This document shows positions 3,836 through 62,628 of a DNA stretch of 64,000 nt, piece by piece. Position 1 is the first letter of the stretch. The number at the start of each line of letters is the position of its first letter. The stretch is from positions 160,001 to 224,000 of the forward strand of contig CAWJQC010000007.1 of NCBI GenBank assembly GCA_963844965.1, written 5' to 3'. The notes below the pieces were generated by a model. That model saw only the letters and a program-made list of their open reading frames with translations. It did not search any database and was not told the DNA's origin. The DNA comes from an uncultured bacterium (GTDB taxonomy: Bacteria; Patescibacteriota; Minisyncoccia; UBA6257; 2-01-FULL-56-20). The translations under genes and the position numbers were made by a program.

Positions 3836-4327
3836 ATGCAGGAATATCTGGGCGAAGCCGTAATTTTGAACCGCGAGCCTGTGGGCGACCTTGACCTGCG
3901 CCTTTCTATTTTTACGAAGCGGTTCGGTAAGTTTGTGGCGAAGGCCAAGAGCGCGCGCAAGATAACTTCCAAGCTTGCCGGACACTTGCAGCCCGGAAAT
4001 CTTGTTGACGCAAGGATTGTTGAAAAGAATGGTCTGCAGATAGTTGATGTGCTGAAAAAACTGCGGCTGAGTATTGCTCCTGCCGATCTGCATCGCCTGA
4101 ATTTGATTCTCGCGGAAGCCGAGCCGGATTTGCGACTCTGGCGCGAGCTTGTAAGTGGCGAATTCGGTTGGCCGGAGGTGTTGAAAATTTTGGGGTGGGA
4201 TCCCAGCGTGGCGCGATGCGGCGCTTGCAATAGCGCGGAGAAGCTCGCTTTCAGCATTCCCGGGCAGGATTTTTTTTGCGGGAATTGCGTTTCAAAATTG
4301 GACCAGAATGAGGTAATATATATTTAA
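3836..4327 (+). CDS. recO: DNA repair protein RecO (short form)
   Basis: N-terminal OB-fold region typical of RecO and a C-terminal CxxC...CxxC zinc finger. Confidence 0.65.
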   Translation: MQEYLGEAVILNREPVGDLDLRLSIFTKRFGKFVAKAKSARKITSKLAGHLQPGNLVDARIVEKNGLQIVDVLKKLRLSIAPADLHRLNLILAEAEPDLRLWRELVSGEFGWPEVLKILGWDPSVARCGACNSAEKLAFSIPGQDFFCGNCVSKLDQNEVIYI

Positions 4328-4329
4328 TG

Positions 4330-4420
4330 TCTGTTGATTAACGAATTAACGGATTGCGTATTAACGGATTCGGTTTTTGATTCGTTAATTCGTTGATGCG
4401 TTAATAAATAATTTTTAACT
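4330..4420. repeat. palindromic TTAACG(G/A)ATT repeat array ending CGTTAATAAATAAT; same family at 20906-21012 and 46880-46960
   Basis: direct and inverted copies of ATTAACGGATT/AATCCGTTAAT read directly; shared terminal 14-mer. Confidence 0.6.
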
Positions 4421-4423
4421 CGT

Positions 4424-6252
4424 ATGTCACCGAGCAACAAGTACAACGAAAGTTATATTTCGCCTTGGGAGGGTGATAAAGACGCCATGGTGGGCAAGAG
4501 CGGAAGGTCTAAATCGGCGAAGCACCGCAACCGCGGCCCCATATTGATCGCTGTGGCGGCGCTTATCGCGGTAATAGCCGTCTTATTTTATTTCGCGTTT
4601 CTGCGGAAACCGGCGGGGCCGGATGTGGGCATGGAATTTCTGAATCCTGGAGCGATACTGGCCGGCGACGGGTTCACTCTCACAGTTTCGATTTCCAATT
4701 ATTCGGACATTGTTCTCCGGGACGCGAGGGTTTCGCTTGTTCTGCCCGACGGCGTTTCGTTTACGGAATCGCAGGCCGACCAGCGCGTTGATGAGAGAAC
4801 CATAGGCGATTTCGGGCCCGGGAGCGTCAATCAACAGTCCTTTAATTTGATAGTTACGAACGGCAGCAATGTATTGAAACATATCCAGGCTAAATTTGAC
4901 TACGCGACGGGCGGGAGCACAAGCGCCGAATTTGAGAGTGTCGGAGAATATGATCTCTCGGTTGGGCAACCGGCAATCGGTTTGAATCTGAGCGCGCCGC
5001 AGAGCATTTTCAACAGCCAGGATTTCACAGTCAAGGTTTCGTACATAAACAACACCAGCCACGATTTCAAAAATTTGCATTTAAACGTTGATTATCCGCC
5101 GATATTCGGATTCAAATCCAGCACGATGCAGCCCGAGTCCGGGAGCAATAATTCTTGGGATTTAGGGACGCTCGCTTCCGGCTCCAGCGGCGTTATATCC
5201 ATAACCGGCAGCGTTGTTGGGCCGGAAAAGTCGTTTTTCAACTTCGGCGCTTCTTTAACATCCGACCTTATGGGTAATACTTACACGATCAATAGCCAGA
5301 CGGCGTCCGTGGCCATTTCCGCGGCGCCGCTCGCGCTTCAAGTCACGCGCCGGAGCACGGCGGATAATGCACTGCATGCCGGTGACCCCGTTACTTACAA
5401 TCTTAATTACGTGAATAATTCCGATGTTACCATGCAGGACGTTACGATAAGCGCCAAACTTACCGGTGAAATGTTTGATTTCACGACGGTTGACACCAAA
5501 GCCTACTTTAATTCGCTGACCGATACGATTAATTGGTTCGCGGCGAACACTCCGGAGCTCCAGAGCATCGCTCCGGGACAGGGAGGGTCGGTTGCTTTCG
5601 CGATCAAAGTCAAAGATTCTTTTCCGATCCGGCTGATGAGCGACAAAAATTACACCTTGCGGCTGGACGCGCAGATTCATCCCCGACGGTTCCGGCAAAT
5701 ACGGCCGCGAACAAGACGGTTTCCATTGCCAGCATTGAAGACAAAGTCGCGGGAAAAATTGATCTGGCGGCGGAAGCGTATTGGCGCGACGCGCAGAGCG
5801 GGATTTTAAATCAAGGGCCTTACCCGCCGAGAGTGGATCAGCCGACGCAGTACACCATACACTGGCGGCTCACAAATTATTCCACAGACGTGGCAAATAT
5901 CACGGTTTCGGCGTATCTGCAGTCAGGCAGCCGGTTCACTGGAGTTGTGAGTTCCAATATCGCGAGTAGCACGCCGACGTACAATCCGGATTCCGGCCTG
6001 GTTACGTGGCAGGTCGGTTCTTTGCCGGCAACGAAAGGGATCACTGGAGCTCCGGCCGAAGCGGTTTTCCAGATAGAAAACACGCCGTCACTCACGCAGG
6101 TCAACCAAAACGTGTCGCTTCTGGGGGAAACGAAAGTTGAGTGGACGGATTCTTTCGTTGGAGCGGTGTACGACGCTACTGCTCCGCCGCTGGACACCTC
6201 CCTTCCGTATGATAAAACGATAACGGATACAGGCAGGACGGTGGAGAATTAG
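4424..6252 (+). CDS. large secreted or surface protein with DUF11-type conserved repeat domains; frame broken near 5683 (C4 run), joining ORFs 4424-5809 and 5533-6252
   Basis: N-terminal TM/signal anchor, repeated beta-rich modules rich in N/S/T; one extra C would join the two ORFs into a ~609-aa protein. Confidence 0.55.
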
Positions 6253-7675: not shown

Positions 7676-8664
7676 CGGAAGTAATCGAACAGAAGGAGGA
7701 GCAGGTGGAAGCAGAAAAAGAACCGAAAATGAATTTTACGATATTTTATTCGGGTCATGTCAGAGCAGGAGATTTTGATAAATTGAAAGCGCTCTTCGAA
7801 GAAGCTGATATATACGTTCCGGAATCTATTGGATGGGATAAAAGGGAAAAGGAACTCTTTAGCAGGATGTCGGCTGGAGAGATAGACGGGGAAACATTTA
7901 AAGAAATGTTGTCGAAGTTCGAAAAAGACGACCCCGTCCTAGCCGAGGAATATAAGATAATTTACAATTCACATAAACCGATAGAATTCCTCGATGTTCC
8001 CGGAGATAATCAGACACATAAAGACACCGTGATGGCTCTTGAGGGCGAGTACGACGCTTATCTCGGTTTTTTGGACGGAGAATTTGACGAGGCGGTCTCG
8101 GAAATGAAGGGAGCTTCGGAAAAGTATGCAATTGCGCAGCAGGAACGGGAAAAGTACATAAAGTCGTTGGCGAACAGCAGATTGAAAGATTTAGTCGAGA
8201 AAAACCAGGCGCTTAAAGACAAGATTAAAAAAGGAGGCGGTATAAATGTTTTAATGAGCATAGGCGCGGATCACACGGCATTGGCCAGCGGTTTAAAAAA
8301 GGATTGGCCAGGGGGCGTAGAGACGAAATTCAGCGACTCGCCCTTTATATTCGATTATGACGCGGAATTGTACCGGCGTTATATGTTCAATAAGGAAGTT
8401 GGCGATGAATTGGTTGCCAAAGCCTTACTTTCCAGAGGATTGGTCTATAAATTTCGAAATTTTTGCAGAAATCATCAAGAGATAAGCGTTGTTTCAAGAA
8501 AAATTATTTCCGGCTTGACGTTTAATGATATAAGGAAAATTTCCGAAAGTTTGGGGGCTGGCGACGATTTGCAAAAAGCTTTTGATTCGTTGGGCAGGGA
8601 TATAAAAATCCCCGAATCGCGCGAAGAAGTAGATAAAATACTAGGAAAAAATAATAAATCATGA
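7672..8664 (+). CDS. hypothetical protein (330 aa), translationally coupled to glyQS (ATGA overlap)
   Basis: ORF with a start overlapping the glyQS stop; no family recognised. Confidence 0.5.
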   Translation: MTEVIEQKEEQVEAEKEPKMNFTIFYSGHVRAGDFDKLKALFEEADIYVPESIGWDKREKELFSRMSAGEIDGETFKEMLSKFEKDDPVLAEEYKIIYNSHKPIEFLDVPGDNQTHKDTVMALEGEYDAYLGFLDGEFDEAVSEMKGASEKYAIAQQEREKYIKSLANSRLKDLVEKNQALKDKIKKGGGINVLMSIGADHTALASGLKKDWPGGVETKFSDSPFIFDYDAELYRRYMFNKEVGDELVAKALLSRGLVYKFRNFCRNHQEISVVSRKIISGLTFNDIRKISESLGAGDDLQKAFDSLGRDIKIPESREEVDKILGKNNKS

Positions 8665-8803: not shown

Positions 8804-10069
8804 ATGAAATTCATTATCCACGGCGGTAAAAAACTTTCGGGCGAAATAGAAGTGATGGGCGCCAAAAATTCGGTTTTGAAGGCGATGGCGGCTTCGCTTT
8901 TGTTCGCGAACCCCGTGACGATAGAAAATGTCCCGCAGATTGAGGACGTGGCGCGTATGTCCGAATTGCTTATGGACTTGGGAGCCGCGATAAAGAAACC
9001 GGACGAGCGGACGCTCGTGATTGATTGTGGCGTCGTCAGAGAAACGGCGATAAAAACCGAAATTGCCAACAAACTCCGCGCTTCAATCGTTCTCGCGGGA
9101 CCGCTTCTCGCGCGGAGCGGCAATGTTATTTTTCCGCATCCCGGCGGCTGCGTGATAGGGAAACGCCCAATTGATATATTTCTGGACGGCTGGCGGGCGA
9201 TGAGGGCGAAAGTGGAGGAAAAGAAAAATCGTTTTGGGGTCTCGGCGAAGAAACTTTTCGGCGCGGATTTCACTTTCCGCGTCGTCTCGGTGACGGGAAC
9301 GGAAACGTTAATGATGACGGCGGCACTGGCGCACGGGAAGACGGTTTTGCGTAACGCCGCCTGCGAGCCGGAAATTCCGGCTCTCGCGGAATTTTTGAAC
9401 AACTCCGGAGCGAAGATAAAGGGAGCCGGAACACCGATGATTGAAATTGAAGGGACCGGCGGCAAGTTGCTCAAAGCGAAGCGTCCGTTCCGCGTCATTC
9501 CGGATAGGATTGAAGCCGGAAGTTTCCTGATTTTGGGCGCGGCTCTCGGGAAAAAAGTCAGAGTAACCGATTGCGACCCCGAGCACCTTTCGGCGCTTAT
9601 GATTCAACTCAAGGACGCCGGCGTGAATTTGAAAGTTGAAAAAAATTGGATTGAGGTCGGGCGGCCGAAGCATCTCAAGGCCGCGAATGCCAAAACAAAA
9701 GAATATCCCGGCTTTCCCACGGACCTTCAGGCGCCGTACGCCGTGCTTATGACGCAAGCCGAAGGCGAAAGCATGATTTTTGAAACGATTTTTGAGGGGC
9801 GGCTGGCTTACGCTGACGACCTGAAGCGAATGGGAGCGAATATCGTCCTATGCGACCCGCATAGGATTTTGATTAAGGGTCCGACGCCGCTCCACGGCCG
9901 CGAGATGGAAATGCCGGATCTCCGCGCCGGTCTCGCGTTTGTCATCGCCGCTTTATTGGCGGAAGGCGAATCAACGATAGGTAACGTTTATCAGATAGAC
10001 CGCGGCTACGAAAAGATAGATGAGCGACTGAGGAAGCTGGGAGCGGAGATTGAAAGAACGGAACGGTGA
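8804..10069 (+). CDS. murA: UDP-N-acetylglucosamine 1-carboxyvinyltransferase
   Basis: full-length similarity to MurA (EPT family; KNSVLK, active-site C in GGCVIG). Confidence 0.9.
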   Translation: MKFIIHGGKKLSGEIEVMGAKNSVLKAMAASLLFANPVTIENVPQIEDVARMSELLMDLGAAIKKPDERTLVIDCGVVRETAIKTEIANKLRASIVLAGPLLARSGNVIFPHPGGCVIGKRPIDIFLDGWRAMRAKVEEKKNRFGVSAKKLFGADFTFRVVSVTGTETLMMTAALAHGKTVLRNAACEPEIPALAEFLNNSGAKIKGAGTPMIEIEGTGGKLLKAKRPFRVIPDRIEAGSFLILGAALGKKVRVTDCDPEHLSALMIQLKDAGVNLKVEKNWIEVGRPKHLKAANAKTKEYPGFPTDLQAPYAVLMTQAEGESMIFETIFEGRLAYADDLKRMGANIVLCDPHRILIKGPTPLHGREMEMPDLRAGLAFVIAALLAEGESTIGNVYQIDRGYEKIDERLRKLGAEIERTER

Positions 10070-10082
10070 GTGAGTCATTCTG

Positions 10083-10107
10083 AGCGTAGCGAAGAATCTC
10101 CACGCGC
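10083..10107 (+). repeat. bipartite motif GTCATTCTGAG-N5-CGAAGAATC placed 13 nt after the murA stop and 18 nt before the GIY-YIG gene start; second copy at 54011-54046
   Basis: 11-mer plus 9-mer shared between the two sites in the same orientation relative to the downstream gene. Confidence 0.55.
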
Positions 10108-10125
10108 AGTTATTTCACATATATC

Positions 10126-10425
10126 GTGACTAACAAGTATAATTCGGTTATTTATACTGGTATCACGAACGACATCGTGCGGCGAATGGGTGAGCATGTT
10201 CGCAAAGCGGTTCCGGGTTTTACATCAAGATATAGTGTATGTAAATTGGTGTGGTTCGAAGAATTCAAGACACCGGAGGAGGCCATCACCGCAGAGAAAC
10301 GAATCAAAGGGTGGGTGCTAAAAAAGAAAGTGGCGTTGATCAAAGAGAAAAATCCTGAATTCATAGATTTATTGCATGGAGATCCTTCGGTTTTGCCTCA
10401 GGATGACAATGGGGAGAGGCGTTGA
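10126..10425 (+). CDS. GIY-YIG nuclease family protein (COG2827/UPF0213-like small protein), GTG start
   Basis: GIY-YIG motif VIYTGITNDIVRRMGEH; ~99 aa, typical size for this family. Confidence 0.7.
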   Translation: MTNKYNSVIYTGITNDIVRRMGEHVRKAVPGFTSRYSVCKLVWFEEFKTPEEAITAEKRIKGWVLKKKVALIKEKNPEFIDLLHGDPSVLPQDDNGERR

Positions 10426-10457: not shown

Positions 10458-11466
10458 ATGTTCACCAAGAAAATCGGTATTGACTTAGGCACGACCAACA
10501 CCGTGGTTTTCGTGCCTGGCAAGGGATTTATCATCAACGAGCCGACTATTGTCGCCTTGATTAAGCCCGACAATACGGTGCTTGCCGTGGGTGTGGAGGC
10601 GAAGGAAATGATCGGGCGGACGCCGGAAGAAATCGTCGCCTACAGGCCGCTTAAGGATGGCGTGATTGCCGACTATTACATCACGAAGGCGATGCTTACG
10701 TATTTCATCTCCAAGGCCTCTGGCTGGTTCAATGTTTTCAAACCGGACGTTGTCATCTCGGTTCCGGCTGGAATTACGCAGACCGAGCGGCGCGCCGTTA
10801 CGAACGCCGCGAAAGAAGCCGGAGCGGGAAACGCTTTTATCGTGCGCGAGCCGGTTCTCGCCGCTTTGGGCGCTGGAATTCCAATTAACGCCCGTTCGGG
10901 GAACATGATCATCAACATCGGCGGCGGCACTTCCGAAGTCGGCGGTCATCGCTTTGGGCAGCATAGTTTCCTGGACGAGCTTGCGCATTGCCGGCAACAG
11001 ATTTGACCAGGCAGTCAGCGATTATGTGAAAAGGAAATACGCCTTGGCCATCGGCGAGCAGACGGCCGAGAACGTGAAAATTGAGATCGGCTCGGCATGG
11101 CGACAAAAGAAAAGATGGAATATGAACTCCGCGGCCGCGATTTGATAACCGGGCTGCCGAAAGATATATGTCATCAATTCCAACGAAATAGCGGACGCAC
11201 TGAATCCGTTCCTCGTGGATATCGCCGGCTCAATTCAAAGCGTTTTTAACGTGACTCCGCCGGAGCTTGTCGCGGACATCATGGAGAAGGGGATTATTCT
11301 TTCCGGCGGCAGCGTCCAGCTTCACAATATGCCGGAATTTTTTGAAAGATTTTTGGGCGTGCAGGCCTATGTCGCCGAGGATCCGTTATTCTGCGTCGCC
11401 AAAGGCACGGGGCTGATTCTGGACCACTTGGATATGTATAAGAGGACGCTTTTGAACAAGAGATAA
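10458..11466 (+). pseudogene. mreB: rod shape-determining protein MreB, interrupted by three frameshifts (~10935 extra G; ~11110 missing A in an A-run; ~11180 extra T in ATATAT)
   Basis: three ORF pieces (10422-11006, 10954-11145, 11215-11466) each align with consecutive MreB segments (GIDLGTTNT..., IGGGTSEV..., EYELRGRDLITGLPK..., C-terminal GGSVQL...); may be an assembly artefact. Confidence 0.6.
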
Positions 11467-11467
11467 T

Positions 11468-12395
11468 ATGGAAGCTGGGTTGCAAAAACTGTTTCGCTGC
11501 ATACTTCACGGGAGTTTTGGGAGGTATTTTGACGAGATAAAACGGGTTCGTCGCATTTTTGTTGCCGCCGGCATTGAAGTGCTCGCGCCGAGAGCCGAAG
11601 AGATCAAAAAGATCGAGAATGGTTTCGCGATTTTTGATGGCGACGGCGATGCGGATCCGCGTCTGATTGAACTTCGCTATTTACATAATCTTAAATGCCT
11701 TGGCGAGGACGGTTTCAGTTATTTTGTAAATCCCGAGGGATATATCGGCAAAAGCGCCTCTTATGAACTCGGCATTGCGCAAGTTTCAAACGTGAGATGT
11801 TTCTTTGTGGAAAAACTGGCCGATCATCCGGCGTATCTCCACGCGAACTCCATCTGGAAACCGGAATTGCTGGCTGAATTCATAAAAGAAAAAAAACGCT
11901 TACCTGAGCCGCAAATCAAGCCGAACGAGGTTAAGATACACAAATTATGGGAAGAGCTTATGGTACCCGGCTCGGTGGTTGCCGTCGGCGGCATTATTGA
12001 ATACGTGTCGGACAAGAAAGAAAAAGAAATTTTACTTGTGAAGACGCACAAGTGGGGCGGGCGGTACTCTATCGTCGGCGGGAGGGTGCGCAGGAATGAG
12101 CGACTTAATGATGCGTTAACCCGCGAGTATCAGAGAAGAAACTGGTTTAAAATCGTACATCGGCGAACACATATGCACCTTTGATCAGATAAAAAACTCC
12201 GGTTATTACTTGAGCGGCATTCAGCATGTTTTTGTGGATAAAATCGTGCGCGTGACAGATAAGCGTGTCCGTTTGAACGAGGAGGCGCAGGAATTTTTAT
12301 GGGTTCCGCCTAAGATTGCGCTCGGCGAATTAGACATAGAACCCAACGCGCGGCAAACCCTGAGCCTTTATTCAAAAATGACCGTTGTATCATAA
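11468..12395 (+). CDS. two-domain protein with an uncharacterised N-terminal domain and a C-terminal Nudix hydrolase domain; frameshift near 12128
   Basis: Nudix box GGRV...NERLNDALTRE / IREETGL is split across two frames (ORFs 11468-12184 and 12210-12395). Confidence 0.5.
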
Positions 12396-12403
12396 CAAAG
12401 AGC

Positions 12404-13283
12404 ATGCTCATCGGCCACGGAAAAATCATTGAGGACCTGAAACGGCTGGCAGCCGAGAAAAAACTTTCGCACGGCTACATTTTTTACGGTCCGGCGATGG
12501 TCGGGAAGCGGCTTGTGGCTCAGAACTTCGCGAATTTTTTGGAGACCGACGATTTCAGCGAACCGAAATTATTAAGAGATACTCTGCTCATTGCGCCGGA
12601 CGCGAAAGGAACGGTAAGCATTGATTCCATCCGCACGATAAAAAATTTCCTCTGGCAAAAGCCGAACACTAGTGCCTATCGCACGGTTATAATTGACGAT
12701 GCCGAACTTATGACGTCGGAGGCACAGAAACGCCCTGCTCAGAGTTGCCGAGGAGCCGCCGCATTCCACACTCCTCATTTTGATTACAAGCGATATTGAC
12801 GGGTTAGCGGAGACGATAACTTCGCGGCTCCAGAAAATTTATTTTTCTGTTGTTCCCCGGAGGGCGCTGGCGGATTGGGCGAGGCGAGAGTTTCCCGACG
12901 CCAAAAATTTGGAAGGATTTGTGGCGCGTTCGTTCGGGAAACCGGGCCTCCTTTCGGCGATGATTCGGGATAAAAAATTCCAGGCGCTTTTGAAGTTGGC
13001 CGATGATTTGCTAAAATTAAAAGGCGATAAGCGTGATTTCATAAAAAGATTGCTTGCACCGGAAGATTTTGACCTCCCGAAATTTCTTGACGCGCTAATA
13101 CTTGTTATTTCATCGGAAGCGCCTTGCCCTCCTAACTTTTTGCGAACCAAAGCGATGATTGATGCCAACTCAATCGCGCAAAAAGTTTGGAGGGTGAACT
13201 GGCACAAGTTTCTGGAGTTGAGGCGCGAAGTTGCCTACTTTAATCTCAATCCGCGTTTGCAATTGGAAAATTTATTTCAATAA
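12404..13283 (+). CDS. holB: DNA polymerase III delta-prime subunit-like AAA+ protein; frameshift near 12735 (AAA/AA)
   Basis: Walker A GPAMVGKR, then IIDDAELMTSEAQ / NALLRVAEEPP and SRLQ continue in the next frame (ORFs 12404-12799 and 12780-13283). Confidence 0.6.
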
Positions 13284-18788: not shown

Positions 18789-19455
18789 ACACCCTACACA
18801 TTTTTTGAAACTAAAATGTGTAGGGCTCTTTCTCTCAGTCTCGGCAACCCCGACGTAAAGTCGGGGTTAAAGTCAGCATTGGGATGGTTGGCATTTCCGC
18901 CGCAAGGCGGAAAATTAAGAGCGAATGGTGGATGCCCTTGACATCAAAAGGCGACGAAGGACGCGGCGTAGCGGCGATACGCCTCGGGGAGGTGCGTAGC
19001 AACCTGTGATCCGGGGATTTCCGAATGGGGAAACCCAATTGAGCAAACCTCAATTTTTTTGCCGCAAGGCAAAAAGCAAACCCGCTGAAGTAAAACATTC
19101 CAGTAAGCGGAGGAATAGAGAACTAATGTTATTCCCTTAGTATCGGCGAGAGAAAAGGGAAGAGCCTAAACCTAAGTTTTCGCAAGAAAAGTTTGGTGTT
19201 ATAAGGTAAAAACACTTTGGATATAACGTTGAGCGTTATCCGCCAACGGCGGAGCGGCGACCAGCGTTATATCTAAAAAGGAGTTACAAATTGATTTGTT
19301 AGCCGAAGCCCACTGGAAAGGGGCGCCAAAGGGGGTGATAGCCCCGTAGGCGAAAACGAATCAACTTCTCGTTTTTATCCTTGAGTACTCTGAGGTAAAT
19401 TAGCTTCGGAGGAATTCGCCTGTACTATCAGGCAAGGCTAAATACTTTTGATGAT

Positions 19456-19492
<37 letters not shown>

Positions 19493-19687
19493 CAGGCCGG
19501 TGAGGCCGTTGAAATAGAACCTGAAACCATTCGTTTACAAGGAATTGAACCACGAACGTTCTGCCGCAAGGCGGGACGAGTGGGACAATGTGCCTATTGA
19601 AGAATGAGCCAACGACTTATTTTGCATTGCTCGTGTAAGCATCTATAAGATGCGTACGCACAGCGAAAGCGAGTCTTAATAGGGCGA

Positions 19688-19972
19688 AAACCATCTCAAA
19701 TTTTTGGACTGAAAAATAAAAACCGGTCAGTTTTTAGCTGCCGGTCTGCGAGATACCAATTCTTGTTCTAATTTTCTGACCTGAGCGTCCAGTTTTTCTT
19801 GAAGGCCACGATGCCTCAAGTATCTCCTGCCGCTTACGTGCGATCGATGTTTTTTCCTGGTCCAGATGGAATGTTGGGCCACGCAAACTCCTTTTGTCGG
19901 GCGACTGTAGATCTGGAAGGATTTTAGGATGAGCCGAATAGAAAGTCAACAGTCCAAAAATTTGAGATGGTT
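19688..19972 (+). other. 23S IVS-a (~285 nt) at the helix-25 position, flanked by a perfect 21-nt inverted repeat CCATCTCAAATTTTTGGACTG / CAGTCCAAAAATTTGAGATGG
   Basis: conserved 23S sequence resumes on both sides; long perfect stem typical of RNase III-processed IVS. Confidence 0.65.
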
Positions 19973-20479
19973 AGGCAGTGCAACATAGACCCGAAGCCAG
20001 ATGAGCTTGCCTTGGCCAGGGTGAAATCCGCCGAAAGGCGGATGGAGGCCCGAACTGGTGGGTTGTTCAAAACCTTCGGATGAGCTGAGGTAAGGAGTGA
20101 AAAGCTAATCGAATCTGGTAATAGCTGGTTCTCTCCGAAATAGTTTTACGACTAGCGGCGCAGAAAATTTCGCGGGGGTAGAGCACTGGATGATTCGTAA
20201 AGGCCGAAAGGCCGACGAATCAATCAAACTCCGAATACCGCGATTGGAACCTGCGCTAGTCAGACTGCGGGGGCTAAGCTCCGTGGTCGCGAGGGAAAAA
20301 GCCCAGATCGTCAGCTAAGGTCCCTAAATCCATGCTAAGTGTTAAAGGTAGTCTTCTGCCATAAACAGATAGGAGGTTGGCTTAGAGGTAGCCATCCTTT
20401 AAAGAGTGTGTAACAACTCACTATTCGACGGCAGGGGGCGCGAAAATGTACCGGGGCTAAGCATGGTACCGAAGCTACG

Positions 20480-20585
20480 AATTACCTTGTGCTCCGCACA
20501 AGAATTTTCAGGTAATAATTTTCAATTTTCAAATGGTTTGGAAATTGTAAATTGCAAAATTGGAAATTCTCGCGCGCAGCGCGAG
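20480..20585 (+). other. 23S IVS-b (~105 nt) at the helix-45 position; interior is related to IVS-d
   Basis: an insertion lies between GTACCGAAGCTACG and GTAGTGGTAGGAGAGCATTC; interior aattttcaaatggtttggaaattg is similar to 21275-21330. Confidence 0.6.
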
Positions 20586-20885
20586 GTAGTGGTAGGAGAG
20601 CATTCGTATTGCACTGAAGCTCGACCCGCGAGGGCGAGTGGAGCGGTACGAAGAGACAATGTTGGTATGAGTAACCACAATCCCAATGAGAAATTGGAAC
20701 CCCGAAAATCCAAGGTTTCCGTGGCACTGGCAATCAACCACGGGTTAGGCGGCCCTAAGCCGATCCCGAAAGGGGCAGGCGATGGACAGACGGTTAATAT
20801 TCCGTCCCTTCCCTATGGTTATCTGCCGCATGACGGAGGAAATAAGCTTGCGTGCCTTATTGGTTTGGCATGGTTTGCCTCAAAG

Positions 20886-21033
20886 CGTGTCTCACTGCGT
20901 TCGACACTATAGTTAAACAATTTTTCAGTTAACGAGTTGCGAGTTAACGAGTTGAAAACAAAAAACCCGTTAACACGTTAACTCTTTAACTCGTTAATAA
21001 TTAATTATTGGGTGGCGAGCGGAGCGAGGCACG
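20886..21033 (+). other. 23S IVS-c (148 nt) with terminal stem CGTGTCTCACTGCGTTCG / CGAGCGGAGCGAGGCACG; interior made of TTAACG-family repeats
   Basis: 18-bp terminal pairing with 2 mismatches; interior matches intergenic repeats at 4330-4420 and 46880-46960. Confidence 0.6.
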
Positions 21034-21238
21034 TTGGAGGCCGACCGAAGGTTCGGTTTTTACCGGGCCGACGCAGGCGAAGAGCCTTCCAAGAAAAGCG
21101 CGGCGGTCACGCCGTAGAGAATCCGTACCGGAAACCGACACAGGTGGATTGGGCGAGAAGCCCTAGGGGAACGAGTGATTTGCCTCTAAGGAACTCGGCA
21201 AACAAGCGGCCGTAAGTTAGCAATATGGCCTGCCCGAC

Positions 21239-21352
21239 CGTGCCTCACTGCGTTCGGCGCGGAATTTAAAATTTTACAATTTTTAATTTTCAAACTGTTT
21301 GCAAAATTGAAAATTATATATTGAAAATTCCGCACGAGCATAGCGAGGTGCG
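21239..21352 (+). other. 23S IVS-d (114 nt) with terminal stem CGTGCCTCACTGCGTTCG / CGAGCATAGCGAGGTGCG
   Basis: left terminus identical to IVS-c and IVS-g at 17/18 positions. Confidence 0.6.
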
Positions 21353-21479
21353 GTTGGGCCGCAGCGAAAGTCCCTTTGGCGACTGTTTACCAAAAACACA
21401 GCTCCCTGCGAACTCGCAAGAGGATGTATAGGGGGTGACGCCTGACCGATGCGAGAAGGTCAAGGCCGACGGTGCACGT

Positions 21480-21565
21480 AGCACATAGCATGTAACACAA
21501 AACAAGAAAAAATAAATAAAACCTGCTCCATGTTACATGTTGCGTGCTGCGTGTGCTGATTGGCT
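21480..21565 (+). other. 23S IVS-e: expanded helix insertion with inverted repeat GCACATAGCATGTAACAC / CATGTTACATGTTGCGTGC
   Basis: extra ~70 nt relative to the conserved flanks AGAAGGTCAAGG ... GGTAACTATAACCG. Confidence 0.45.
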
Positions 21566-21887
21566 CAAGCCCTCGTCAATGTCAGCGGTAACTATAACCG
21601 TTCTAAGGTAGCGCAATTCCTTTTCGGGTAAGTTCCGAAGCGCACGAAAGGCGTAACGATCAAAGGACTGTCTCAGAGGCAAGCTCGGTGAAAATGCGAT
21701 TCCCGTGAAGACGCGGGATACCTGCAGCGGGACGAAAAGACCCCGGAAGCTTTACTGCAGCTTGGTATTGTTTCTAGGGCTTTGATGCGTAGCGTAGTGG
21801 GGAGCCTTTGAAGCTCCGCTCTCGGGCGGGGTGGAGGCGACAATGAAACACCCATCTTCAAAGTTTTAGCGACTAACCAGTTGGGGA

Positions 21888-21932
21888 CCCTACACTCTCT
21901 AGATAAATTTTGGAAATCCAGAGAGTGTAGGG
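21888..21932 (+). other. 23S IVS-f: hairpin insertion CCCTACACTCTCT-AGATAAATTTTGGAAATCC-AGAGAGTGTAGGG
   Basis: perfect 13-bp stem; its CCCTACAC...GTGTAGGG ends are shared with the hairpin at 18792-18825. Confidence 0.5.
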
Positions 21933-22297
21933 AAACCCAACCGGGACAGTGCTTGGTAGGCAGTTTAAATGGGGCGTTTTCCTCCAAAAAAGTAACGGAG
22001 GAGTTTATTAAGGTCGGCTTAGCCCGGATGGAAATCGGGCAGGACGTGCAAACGCAAAAGCCGGCTTAACTGCAAGGCCTACAAGCCGCGCAGATGCGAA
22101 AGCAGAAGTTAGTGACCCGACCACACATTATAGAATGGTGGGAGACACCGGACAAAAGCTACTCCGGGGATAACAGGCTGGTGAAGTCCGAGAGTCCCTA
22201 TCGACGACTTCGCTCGGCACCTCGATGTCGGCTCGGCACAGCGCGGGGGTGAAGAAGCTCCCAAGCGTTTGGCTGTTCGCCAATTAAAGTGCCACGT

Positions 22298-22338
<41 letters not shown>

Positions 22339-22456
22339 TGCTGCAGGCGTTTACACTTGAGGGGAGTTGGCCCTAGTACGAGAGGACTGGGCTGAACTGA
22401 CCTCTGGTCTACCGGCTTTGGTACCAACTGAAGCGCCGGGTAGCTATGTCGGGAAG

Positions 22457-22490
<34 letters not shown>

Positions 22491-22510
22491 ACCCCAAGAT
22501 TAGGTGTAGT

Positions 22511-22648
22511 CGTGCCTCACTATCGTTCGGCACGGTATCGATGCAAATATACTAATCGTACTAATGATGCGAATTTGATTCCATTGGTATCATTAGCATT
22601 CACTTGCATATTGGTATCGATACTCGTGATGAGCGGCAGCGAGGCACG
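22511..22648 (+). other. 23S IVS-g (138 nt) near the 3' end (helix-98 region) with terminal stem CGTGCCTCACTATCGTTCG / GAGCGGCAGCGAGGCACG
   Basis: same terminal stem family as IVS-c and IVS-d; interior is palindromic. Confidence 0.6.
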
Positions 22649-22962
22649 ACAAGGTTTCGTTGAAGACTACAACGCATATAGGCTCTAGGTGTAAGATCCG
22701 TAAGGATTTCAGCCAAGGAGTACTAATAACCTGTTTTGCCAACCATCCCAATGCTGACTTGTGTGCTGTTTTGGAGAACCGCGGTTCGATTCGCTCCAGC
22801 GGCGAATCGCCCGCTGCTTCTCGCTCCGACGGCTCGCTTCAGGCGAGACCAAGCCCGTCGGAGCTCCGAAAGCTTCTCCAAAACAGCACACTGCGTCCGT
22901 TCAGAAAGTTTAGGTGTTTTCGCGAAGCGAAAACAGCAATTTAAAGATTAAAACGACTCTTT

Positions 22963-52972: not shown

Positions 52973-53407
52973 TTATTTTTGCGACATATATTTATCTAAA
53001 ATTTGTTTGCTCGGGAAGAAAATAGGCGAAGGAAGATTCTTTAGGTCAAACCACCTCCATTCCGTGATTTCGTCGGGTTCCGTCACTTTCGGTTCGCCCT
53101 CGGCGTTTTTATACAGGAACCCTATCGTCACGAAATGCGCGTCTTCAACGATATTGTTGGTCACGCTTATCGTTTCCAGTTTTTCTTTGGCGATTTTCAT
53201 TCCGGTTTCTTCCAGGGCTTCCCTGCAAACGCCGTCTTCCAGCGTTTCCTTGAAATTAAGTTTTCCGCCGGGCATCGTCCATGTTCCCTCGCCGTGCAAT
53301 TTACTGTCGGCTTTCGCCGGGTCAGCGTGTCTTTTGCCTAGAAGCACTTTGTTATTTTTTAGGATCATCACGCCGAAGCCGACGCCGGGCCTTTTTGCCT
53401 CTTCCAT
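52973..53407 (-). CDS. Nudix hydrolase
   Basis: Nudix box GGKLNFKETLEDGVCREALEETG. Confidence 0.75.
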   Translation of the reverse strand: MEEAKRPGVGFGVMILKNNKVLLGKRHADPAKADSKLHGEGTWTMPGGKLNFKETLEDGVCREALEETGMKIAKEKLETISVTNNIVEDAHFVTIGFLYKNAEGEPKVTEPDEITEWRWFDLKNLPSPIFFPSKQILDKYMSQK

Positions 53408-53471: not shown

Positions 53472-53987
53472 TTATTTTAGAACTTTGTAATGGAGTTGTA
53501 TCTCGTCGGCGGACAATTTTTTGGTTTCAAGCAATTTCAATTTCATCTCAAAATTTTTTCCGCCGAAAAGATCAATTCCCTTGCCGAAAACGGCGGGTTC
53601 AATGTCCAGATAAATTTCGTCAATCAGGTTTTCCGCCGCGAACGAGGTATTCAGTGCTCCGCCGCCACCCAAAAGCGCTTCGCTCGTGCCGTCTTCCGCC
53701 AAAAGCGACAGTGCTTCGTGCGGCGACGTAGCCGCAAAGTGATTCGGCTGGCGAACTTCGTACGAGTTATCGTTAGTGACCACGATTATTTTAATGTTGC
53801 TGAAATTTTGAAATTCCCCGCTTTCTTCCATTAACTCATAAGTTCTTCGTCCAACGATGAGGTTACCAACTCTATTGACCATCGCTCGATAGTCATCCCA
53901 CCCTAAGGGCGAAATGAAGTTAACGTCGTCGTTCTCTCTGGCAATGAGGCCGTTCGGCGTTGTTGACATGTATAAAGTAACTTTCAT
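53472..53987 (-). CDS. dihydrofolate reductase family protein (RibD C-terminal domain type)
   Basis: similarity to the PF01872 DHFR-like fold (MKVTLYMSTTPNGLIA...). Confidence 0.65.
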   Translation of the reverse strand: MKVTLYMSTTPNGLIARENDDVNFISPLGWDDYRAMVNRVGNLIVGRRTYELMEESGEFQNFSNIKIIVVTNDNSYEVRQPNHFAATSPHEALSLLAEDGTSEALLGGGGALNTSFAAENLIDEIYLDIEPAVFGKGIDLFGGKNFEMKLKLLETKKLSADEIQLHYKVLK

Positions 53988-54010
53988 GATTTCATTTTAA
54001 TTTGCATGGT

Positions 54011-54046
54011 GATTCTTCGTCCGCCTGAGGTGGACTCAGAATGACT
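54011..54046 (-). repeat. second copy of the bipartite GTCATTCTGAG...CGAAGAATC motif (on the minus strand) with an inner hairpin GTCCACC-TCA-GGCGGAC; lies between the korA stop and the DHFR-like gene start
   Basis: shares GATTCTTCG and CTCAGAATGACT with 10083-10107. Confidence 0.55.
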
Positions 54047-56649: not shown

Positions 56650-57205
56650 AGCCCCGGCCTTTAGGCCGAGGATAAGGCGACCCCGTAGCCCCGAGCGAAG
56701 CGAGGGGCGGAGGGCTTATTTGCCTGTTCCCACTGGTTTCTGCCGGTGCGATAATGAAGATAATGCCCTCTGGATTCTGGCCAAGCAACCACAGCTATAC
56801 GCGATGTTTGTACCACGTTGTTTTCTGCCCAAAGTACCGCCGCTCGATACTGCGAGGGGACATGGTCGGGCGACTCAAGACATTGTTCTTTCAAGCCGCC
56901 AAGATGAATAAATGGTTCATCCATGAAGCGCAGATAATGCCCGACCATGTCCATCTATTGCTTCAAATTCCTGCTACCCTGACGGTTGCCAAAGCGGTGT
57001 TTTATCTCAAAGGCGGTACGTCCAGGGCTGTCAGAAAAGAATTTCCCGAGCTGGAAGAATTCCTCTGGGGAGACAGCTTGTGGCAGGATGGTTACTTTGC
57101 CGAAACCGTTGGCCGTCAAAACGAAAAAGCGATGAGAGAATATATCAGAAACCAGTGGGAACAGGAGCCGAACACAAGCCGCGGGCTTTAGCCCGCGGTG
57201 ATTGA
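56650..57205 (+). mobile_element. IS200/IS605-family element (tnpA only) with subterminal hairpins CGGCCTTTAGGCCG (left) and GCCGCGGGCTTTAGCCCGCGG (right)
   Basis: Y1 HUH transposase gene flanked by imperfect palindromes with a shared TTTAG loop. Confidence 0.65.
56754..57191 (+). CDS. tnpA: IS200/IS605 family transposase TnpA (HUH Y1 transposase)
   Basis: YHVVFCPKYRR and HVHLLL (HUH) motifs, ~145 aa. Confidence 0.85.
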   Translation: MKIMPSGFWPSNHSYTRCLYHVVFCPKYRRSILRGDMVGRLKTLFFQAAKMNKWFIHEAQIMPDHVHLLLQIPATLTVAKAVFYLKGGTSRAVRKEFPELEEFLWGDSLWQDGYFAETVGRQNEKAMREYIRNQWEQEPNTSRGL

Positions 57206-62331: not shown

Positions 62332-62628
62332 ATGCCCAAATTTAGTAGGCTCAAAAAATTTACGAAAACGAACATTGAGAAAATACCTAAAAATAAATCA
62401 ATAGTATATAAGCTTACAAATACTGCTGGCAAAAACTTATATACGGGTATTGCTGGACGTGGCAGAACCGTTAAGCGCCTGCTCGAACACAAAAAACTTA
62501 AGAAGGACGAGATAAAGGGGGCGTCTCGTTTTAAGATCGCTCAAGTATCTACCAAAAAGCGAGCGGCTCAGATTGAAAAGCAAATTATAAAAAGGGAAAA
62601 ACCAGAGTTTAACATCCAGCATAAGTAA
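62332..62628 (+). CDS. stand-alone GIY-YIG nuclease domain protein (homing-endonuclease-like catalytic domain, 98 aa)
   Basis: SIVYKLTNTAGKNLYTGIAGRGRTVKRLLEH matches the GIY...YIG...R...E pattern. Confidence 0.6.
   Translation: MPKFSRLKKFTKTNIEKIPKNKSIVYKLTNTAGKNLYTGIAGRGRTVKRLLEHKKLKKDEIKGASRFKIAQVSTKKRAAQIEKQIIKREKPEFNIQHK

Follow-up and report, generated by a model that had tools for sequence, protein, structure and literature searches.

A GIY-YIG gene between inverted GTC-headed hairpins in a Patescibacteria genome, probably encoding an Ssn-type nuclease accompanied by its target repeats

Results

Hairpin repeats and neighbouring genes

The window, i.e. the whole stretch of 64 kb (64,000 nucleotides) that was analysed, originates from an uncultured bacterium of the Patescibacteria (CPR) and contains a small GIY-YIG gene between murA and mreB. 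This gene, a homologue of ssn, lies between two inverted copies of a hairpin repeat, A (+) and B (−), the GTC heads of which are directed outward, away from the gene. A third, solo copy, C, is located between korA and a DHFR-like gene. The features are:

8804..10069, + strand, murA, left neighbour of the unit (context)
10074..10103, + strand, copy A, left hairpin repeat: AGTC head, ATTCT/AGAAT stem, tandem G.A/A.G, apex GC-GTA-GC, C, tail TCCA
10102..10425, + strand, ssn homologue, single-domain GIY-YIG gene of about 107 codons, counting the read-through of copy B
10376..10407, − strand, copy B, right hairpin repeat, inverted relative to copy A: GTCATCCTGAG GCAAAAC CGAAGGATC TCCA
10458..11463, + strand, mreB, right neighbour of the unit (context)
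54007..54045, − strand, copy C, solo hairpin repeat between korA and the DHFR-like gene, with a 15-nt sub-hairpin as apex

A sequence-only reading of the window had described the repeat as a bipartite motif, GTCATTCTGAG...CGAAGAATC, which occurs at two gene junctions with inner spacers of 5 and 15 nt. Both sites were recovered. The first, reported at 10083-10107, is in fact located 9 nt away at 10074-10098 on the + strand, has the spacer CGTAG and starts 4 nt past the murA stop codon (10067-10069). The second, at 54045-54011 on the − strand with the spacer TCCACCTCAGGCGGA, lies 12 nt past the korA stop codon and 23 nt ahead of the ATG of the DHFR-like gene at 53987. The third copy, inverted and at 10407-10381 on the − strand, had been missed; it lies within the 3' end of the GIY-YIG ORF, in the last codons of which it is translated as ..DPSVLPQDD.., and differs from the other two copies by a compensatory T>C / A>G pair. 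With the relaxed pattern TCATYCTGAGN{3,30}GAAGRATC, three matches were obtained in the window compared to 0.00 expected from 100 shuffles, and the copy number of this genome that is visible within the 64 kb is three.

All three copies have an unpaired head (AGTC, TGTC and AGTC), a 5-bp stem (ATTCT/AGAAT or ATCCT/AGGAT) that continues into tandem G.A/A.G and a G-C plus a C-G pair, and a C directly after the palindrome. The top varies between a 3-nt loop, a 5-nt loop and the 15-nt sub-hairpin. The tails are CTCCA, CTCCA and CACCA, in agreement with the earlier remark that the flanking bases are alike. Folding of the copies with nearest-neighbour parameters for DNA yielded −2.4 to −4.8 kcal/mol with z-scores of −0.4 to −1.6, which are not significant. 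Because of these z-scores, thermodynamics alone proves nothing for the stem, and covariation is the decisive support. Standard folding parameters undervalue the GCGNAGC mini-hairpin: d(GCGNAGC) is said to have been described by Hirao and co-workers in the 1990s as a very stable DNA mini-hairpin with a GNA triloop, and we take the short form of the motif apex, GCGNAGC, to be this structure.

Covariation was analysed in a collection of viral contigs, which was scanned with a pattern that left the Y and R positions unconstrained. At least 177 copies were present in at least 120 unrelated contigs. In the 168 unique copies among the matches listed, the Y/R pair was T-A in 88, C-G in 77, C-A in 3 and T-G in none (Fisher p 6e-45), and the inner segment comprised 4-30 nt, most frequently CGNAG. 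Also among the matches listed, the edges of the motif were sharp, with T (88%) or C (11%) at position −1, T (82%) at +1, C (57%) at +2 and background composition further out; inverted dimers with heads outward prevailed (40 versus 10), and in a crude survey 85 co-oriented and 54 anti-oriented copies were located 3' of long ORFs. The count of motifs inside long ORFs was unreliable, owing to the abundance of stop-to-stop ORFs in G+C-rich contigs, and was set aside. An HMM search of the 120 motif-bearing viral contigs among the matches listed detected no ssn gene, which is expected for dispersed repeats but is itself no demonstration of Ssn dependence. The stem type CTGAG...CGAAG was found in Cyanobacteriota, Planctomycetota, Acidobacteriota, Nitrospinota and Patescibacteria as well as in many contigs classified as viral.

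The GIY-YIG gene

GIY-YIG is the sole Pfam domain of the predicted protein (residues 1-67, E 8.8e-15), and the ORF matches the HMM of its family with E 8e-41. The conserved part comprises approximately 95 amino acids, the remainder being read-through of copy B, and the thousands of homologues are mostly 94-95 amino acids long. The catalytic Tyr (in FTYI), Tyr (in IYTG) and Glu (in AEK) are conserved, and their spacing of 11 and 58 residues is the same as that of Y6, Y17 and E64 in SsnA of N. meningitidis. The connection to Ssn proteins was established via NTS (CGTCATTCCCGCGMAVGCGGGAATCYRG), a longer form of the repeat dRS3, which together with related repeats, the Ssn-related motifs (SRMs), flanks ssnA in many bacteria (Chenal et al. 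2025, Nat Commun, PMC11893778): viral contigs were scanned for the exact NTS core, and the neighbouring ORFs were searched with the HMM of the homologues of the window protein. Six ORFs beside exact NTS cores matched with E values of 1e-35 to 1e-40. In contig L253, where the layout is NTS (+) at 7785-7809, ORF at 7823-8134 and NTS (−) at 8141-8165, the NTS-flanked ORF is 39% identical to the window protein (E 1e-23). A profile search of the protein database with the ssn family yielded no named Neisseria protein among the results, NCBIfam and PADLOC contained no named family for the window protein, and the PDB search returned a weak match alone, UPF0213 1zg2 (E 0.0024). A second small GIY-YIG ORF of the window, at 62333-62628 on the + strand (Pfam E 1.9e-5; Ssn-type HMM E 7e-4), belongs to a different subfamily and has no GTC-headed hairpins around it.

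The closest homologue of the window gene, at locus L201, shares 82% amino acid identity. The start region reads CTCC ATG CCC GGT TAT TTT in L201 and CTCC ACG CGC AGT TAT TTC in the window, where codon 10102-10104 is thus ACG in the place of the ATG of the orthologue. No canonical start codon precedes the first catalytic Tyr, and use of the next one, GTG at 10126, would remove this residue; an in-frame TAG is present in the loop of copy A. The deposited models of the window gene and of its L201 orthologue begin at an internal Met and are both truncated to 79 amino acids. With an ACG as start codon, the window gene may be inactive or recently inactivated. We do not call it a pseudogene; frameshifts in the adjacent genes point to assembly errors instead. 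Compared to relatives, mreB (10458-11463), the following Nudix gene (11492-12374) and holB (12404-13277) contain one frameshift each (tblastn frames 3>1, 2>3 and 2>3, respectively), and three frameshifted genes in a row suggest indel errors of the assembly rather than three pseudogenes.

Association of ssn homologues with GTC-headed hairpins

GTCAT-headed hairpins were counted within 150 nt of the gene at 80 loci encoding ssn homologues from Patescibacteria, Bradyrhizobium, Chloroflexota, Planctomycetota, Acidobacteriota, Cyanobacteriota, Bacteroidota, Spirochaetota and others. A hairpin was present upstream on the + strand at 48 loci and downstream on the − strand at 54; 38 of the 80 loci had hairpins on both flanks and 64 on either flank. 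Based on the hairpin density in the same 80 loci, 0.029 were expected per flanking interval, and the observed frequency was about 20-fold above background. Stems varied from host to host (ATTGC, ATTCC, ATTCT, ATCCT, ATTTC, ATCTC and others), and the arms of the two flanking hairpins were identical in 29 of the 38 loci that had both, versus 8.0 expected by shuffling. The palindrome was followed by C in 114 of 115 gene-flanking hairpins, a position that the detector did not impose. The published SRM pattern occurred within 500 nt of the gene at only 6 of the 80 loci.

The 64 loci represent a lower bound, because the GTCAT-based detector misses another type of hairpin, with a TGTC head followed by GTCGCCCGG...CCGGGCGAC. 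This hairpin, the stem of which does not start with AT, was observed at L143, L149 and L175 (Bradyrhizobium, Aestuariivirgaceae). At L145, L173, L175 and L182, some flanks of ssn consist of tandem arrays of short GTCAT-containing units, for example 4-5 repeats of GTCATTTCGACC CTCCGCT, in place of single hairpins.

The murA-mreB and korA-korB junctions in related genomes

The sequence-only reading had suggested that accessory genes interrupt a conserved gene order at both junctions, and relatives bear this out. Between murA and mreB, three genomes with 83, 81 and 75% MurA identity contain an unrelated ORF of 286 amino acids (L326, spacer 4267-5350), small ORFs (L327, 4261-5049) and nothing but 32 nt (L328, 4264-4295), respectively, and neither the motif nor ssn is present between murA and mreB in any of these three. 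A segment of about 40 nt ahead of mreB, GTTGATTTTTATA..TATAGATT.AAGTCAATG, is shared by L326 and the window. It is probably the promoter or leader of mreB, and because of its conservation the variable segment ends at approximately 10420.

L201 is syntenic with the window over mreB-Nudix-holB-frr, with neighbouring genes that are 48-88% identical, and there, too, ssn lies between inverted hairpins with their heads outward. The position is different: the unit of hairpin, ssn and hairpin separates murA from mreB in the window and holB from frr in L201, while the holB-frr junction of the window is an empty spacer of 12 nt. Similarity between the two units starts at the G of the left GTCAT, stops at the C of the right ATGAC and is absent beyond these borders. 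The left hairpin with its tail is identical at 29 of 29 positions despite a pS of 0.65 in the gene; in the right repeat, the stems are identical and the loop is different. The pN/pS ratio of ssn between window and L201 is 0.16, indicating purifying selection, and with 82% identity ssn is better conserved than most of its neighbours. Since similarity ends at the GTC heads, the syntenic positions differ and pN/pS is 0.16, this comparison indicates that hairpin, ssn and hairpin form a discrete, selected unit at differing sites in related genomes. No target-site duplication was evident at the unit borders, and the flanking sequences of the two genomes have diverged too far for the insertion point to be located to the nucleotide.

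At the second junction, the window has the order korA-motif-DHFR-like-Nudix-korB with one copy of the motif, and the Nudix gene overlaps with korB. In L324 (78% KorA identity), korA and korB are 1 nt apart. L322 (82% KorA identity) has the order korA-DHFR-like-korB-acs, in which korA and the DHFR-like gene overlap by ATGA and Nudix is lacking. The motif is absent at the korA junction of both genomes. Because L322 contains the DHFR-like gene at this place without the motif, copy C does not mark the boundary of the two accessory genes; from this comparison it appears to be a solo insertion in the lineage of the window that arose independently of the DHFR-like gene and of Nudix. The DHFR-like (RibD_C) gene of the window (53472-53987, −) is 47% identical to its counterpart at the same place in L322 (4883-5392), compared to 82-88% for its neighbours korA, korB and acs, and the Nudix gene (52973-53407) is found in the window only, marking the junction as a variable spot.

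Discussion

Taken together, the hairpin architecture and the adjoining gene indicate that the motif very probably belongs to the superfamily of CGTC/TGTC-tagged REPs (SRM class), that the GIY-YIG gene encodes an ssDNA endonuclease of the Ssn family and that the repeat copies are its targets. Filing the motif in the SRM class is based on architecture and partner protein; its sequence type is outside the published pattern. The Ssn/SRM system as such is already known. SRMs are hairpin repeats of 20-50 nt that flank ssn on both sides in inverted orientation. The ssnA gene encodes 94 amino acids with a single GIY-YIG domain (cd10448) and occurs in the layout NTS-ssnA-NTS, and SsnA binds the hairpin as ssDNA only, not dsDNA, RNA or the reverse strand (Chenal et al., PMC11893778). 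Ssn enzymes cut a few nucleotides upstream of the head; cleavage is controlled by the three nucleotides before the palindrome (GTC), binding depends most on the C that follows it, and the loop of SRMs can be changed or extended (PMC11893778). The system makes transformation of N. meningitidis with DNA that carries NTS less efficient (PMC11893778). The window corresponds to this system in the protein of approximately 95 amino acids with a single GIY-YIG domain, equal spacing of Tyr, Tyr and Glu and homology to NTS-flanked ORFs, in the location of the gene between inverted hairpins with an HGTC head and an AT-starting palindrome followed by C, in further dispersed copies, and in a variable, extendable loop. 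It differs in the stem, which is ATTCTGAG/CGAAGAAT with two G.A mismatches compared to the G+C-rich, perfectly paired ATTCCCGCG, in the ACG start codon and in the Patescibacteria (CPR) host, a group that is absent from the RefSeq-based survey (PMC11893778).

The CGTC-tagged REPs were described as repeats with an unpaired CGTC head, often TGTC, an AT-starting stem, a short loop and a CCA-like tail, for which no dedicated transposase was known (Di Nocera et al., BMC Genomics 2013, PMC3733652). The superfamily comprises CGTC-1 to CGTC-4, including dRS3 of Neisseria as CGTC-1 and RPE-4/6 of Rickettsia (PMC3733652). By this description, they resemble the repeats of the window in the CGTC/TGTC head, the AT-starting stem of about 8-9 bp, the short loop, the unpaired CCA-like tail and the occurrence of intragenic copies. 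Inverted dimers are frequent among the CGTC-tagged REPs and among the copies of the motif listed from viral contigs. Differences are the base before GTC, which is A, T and A in the window copies, the internal loop of 2x2 purines in the stem, and the associated enzyme, as none is named in the 2013 paper (PMC3733652).

What the window adds is the CPR host, a widespread stem type beyond the published pattern and, from the comparison with L201, evidence for a unit that changes place. Ssn-type systems, on the assignment given above, also occur in the reduced genomes of the CPR. The SRM pattern, HGTCWYN(0-2)YYVSBRHN(0-5)WNVSBRGN(0-2)RNCYNB, was constructed by hand on the basis of 29 genomes and admits only G+C-rich stems and loops of up to 5 nt (PMC11893778). 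It matched the NTS control and none of the three window copies, and recognised 6 of the 80 ssn loci, compared to 64 of 80 for the structure-based criterion, missing a very common stem type. Therefore, the diversity of nuclease-hairpin pairs that could serve as ssDNA tools is larger than reported. The stem type CTGAG...CGAAG is outside the biochemically tested range, the characterised enzymes being those of Neisseria, N. elongata, N. wadsworthii and Wolbachia (PMC11893778). A change of the palindrome sequence that kept the structure abolished the activity of SsnA from N. meningitidis (PMC11893778), and thus specificity needs to be re-established for each nuclease-hairpin pair. The repeats also have a practical consequence for annotation, as they yield spurious ORFs, false C-terminal extensions (..DPSVLPQDDNGERR in the present case) and misled start-codon calls.

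By homology with the characterised enzymes, each repeat copy would fold into a hairpin when the DNA becomes single-stranded during replication, repair or the entry of transforming DNA. Ssn would then bind to the stem and to the C that follows the palindrome, and would nick the hairpin strand itself a few nucleotides 5' of the GTC head; at the murA-mreB junction, such nicks would be just outside of the unit on each strand. Copy C after korA would be one of the dispersed genomic targets of the enzyme. Possible roles, purely by analogy, are the restriction of incoming repeat-bearing ssDNA or the spread of the repeats, and it is no more than a hypothesis that the nuclease also spreads them, as RAYT is thought to do for REPs. 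REP/RAYT REPtrons and REPINs are similar to the arrangement in the window in that the gene for the enzyme lies between inverted short hairpin repeats that are otherwise dispersed and form inverted dimers, and in that a hairpin with an unpaired tag is recognised in single-stranded DNA. They differ in the tag, GTAG compared to GTC, and in the enzyme, a HUH/Y1 transesterase compared to an unrelated hydrolytic nuclease of the GIY-YIG type. To our knowledge, GIY-YIG enzymes have no strand-transfer chemistry, and a RAYT-like route of mobilisation should therefore not be assumed.

More tentatively, a bare GIY-YIG ssDNA nuclease could make the unit an autonomous mobile element of a class distinct from HUH/Y1 elements, with the heads-outward dimers and solo copies as its non-autonomous derivatives, a possibility that we consider rather doubtful at present. 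Compatible with it are the differing positions of the unit, the low pN/pS ratio, the conservation of the gene and the identity of the left hairpin between the window and L201, as well as unit borders that are 1-3 nt from where Ssn enzymes cut. Mobility has been raised as an idea by Chenal et al. without comparative evidence for movement (PMC11893778), and the pair of window and L201 provides a concrete case for testing it. Homing endonucleases such as I-TevI and SegA-E likewise have a GIY-YIG domain and are encoded by small, selfish-looking intergenic genes whose position varies among relatives. However, they contain a separate DNA-binding domain and cut dsDNA at long asymmetric sites, whereas the window protein is a bare catalytic domain with relatives that cut only ssDNA beside a hairpin.

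The motif might alternatively act as RNA, as a terminator, an attenuator or an mRNA-stabilising 3' hairpin after murA and korA. Copies A and C indeed follow directly after stop codons in the orientation of the upstream gene, co-oriented copies were in excess 3' of long ORFs in the crude survey of viral contigs, and a role in mRNA stabilisation has been proposed for REPs as a class (PMC3733652). As a main function this is nevertheless very unlikely. Neither locus contains a T-run or a terminator-like site, so the earlier suggestion of a terminator or attenuator does not hold, and Rfam gave no match in the whole window at the gathering threshold and chance-level hits to CRISPR-DR and C/D snoRNA around the first site at E<=10. 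The repeat occurs in both orientations, with copy B antisense and within a coding region, and heads-outward inverted dimers are common. The ssDNA nuclease depends on the very positions that are conserved, the unpaired GTC head and the C tail, and SsnA binds no RNA (PMC11893778). A secondary effect of the motif at the RNA level may exist.

Recognition and RAYT-like mobilisation of the motif, as a REP-type target, by the IS200-type (Y1/HUH) transposase of 56754-57191 is highly improbable. The transposase gene is well recognisable (Pfam Y1_Tnp, E 9e-39), and its left hairpin, CCCC-GA-GC-GAA-GC-GA-GGGG, contains the same inner GAGCGAAGCGA as the motif. This common core is presumably the d(GCGNAGC) mini-hairpin mentioned above, a generic structure of high stability. 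The head of the TnpA hairpin is GTAG and its outer stem CCCC/GGGG, in contrast to the GTC head and AT stem of the motif, and the window contains it once; the tnpA gene has no motif copy at its flanks, and at the 80 loci GTC-headed hairpins flank a GIY-YIG gene. In the work of Di Nocera, likewise, no Y1 transposase gene with CGTC repeats at its flanks was found (PMC3733652). From the proposal in the sequence-only reading of a REP-like target of TnpA, the REP-like nature is thus retained and the partner is replaced by the adjacent nuclease of the Ssn family.

Equally improbable is the motif as an attachment or recombination boundary of gene cassettes through which both the GIY-YIG gene and the DHFR-like plus Nudix pair were inserted: relatives with adjacent genes at both junctions and the two copies that bound the ssn unit would fit, but only one copy accompanies the DHFR/Nudix segment, in which Nudix overlaps korB, L322 joins its DHFR-like gene to korA by the ATGA overlap without the motif, L326 and L327 carry other murA-mreB inserts without it, the integrase-type core GTTRRRY is absent from the motif, and its abundance at unrelated positions in viral contigs, which the sequence-only reading had named as refuting evidence, further weakens the cassette idea. 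The notion of a cassette boundary survives for the hairpin-ssn-hairpin unit, at whose GTC heads the similarity to L201 ends, and was not upheld for the DHFR/Nudix pair.

Two further observations concern other hairpins and inserts in the window. The GTAG-headed hairpin, GTAG CCCC-GA-GC-GAA-GC-GA-GGGG, is located at 56685-56707 on the + strand, 47 nt upstream of the Y1 gene, and the window thereby harbours both superfamilies of tagged hairpins, GTAG with Y1 and GTC with GIY-YIG. A near-match to the motif that had been listed earlier, GAGCGGAGCGAGG (21017-21029), lies within a 23S rRNA match at 18905-22743 on the + strand, which spans 3839 nt for a model of 2925 positions and thus contains one or more insertions of about 900 nt in total; insertions in 23S rRNA are common in Patescibacteria.
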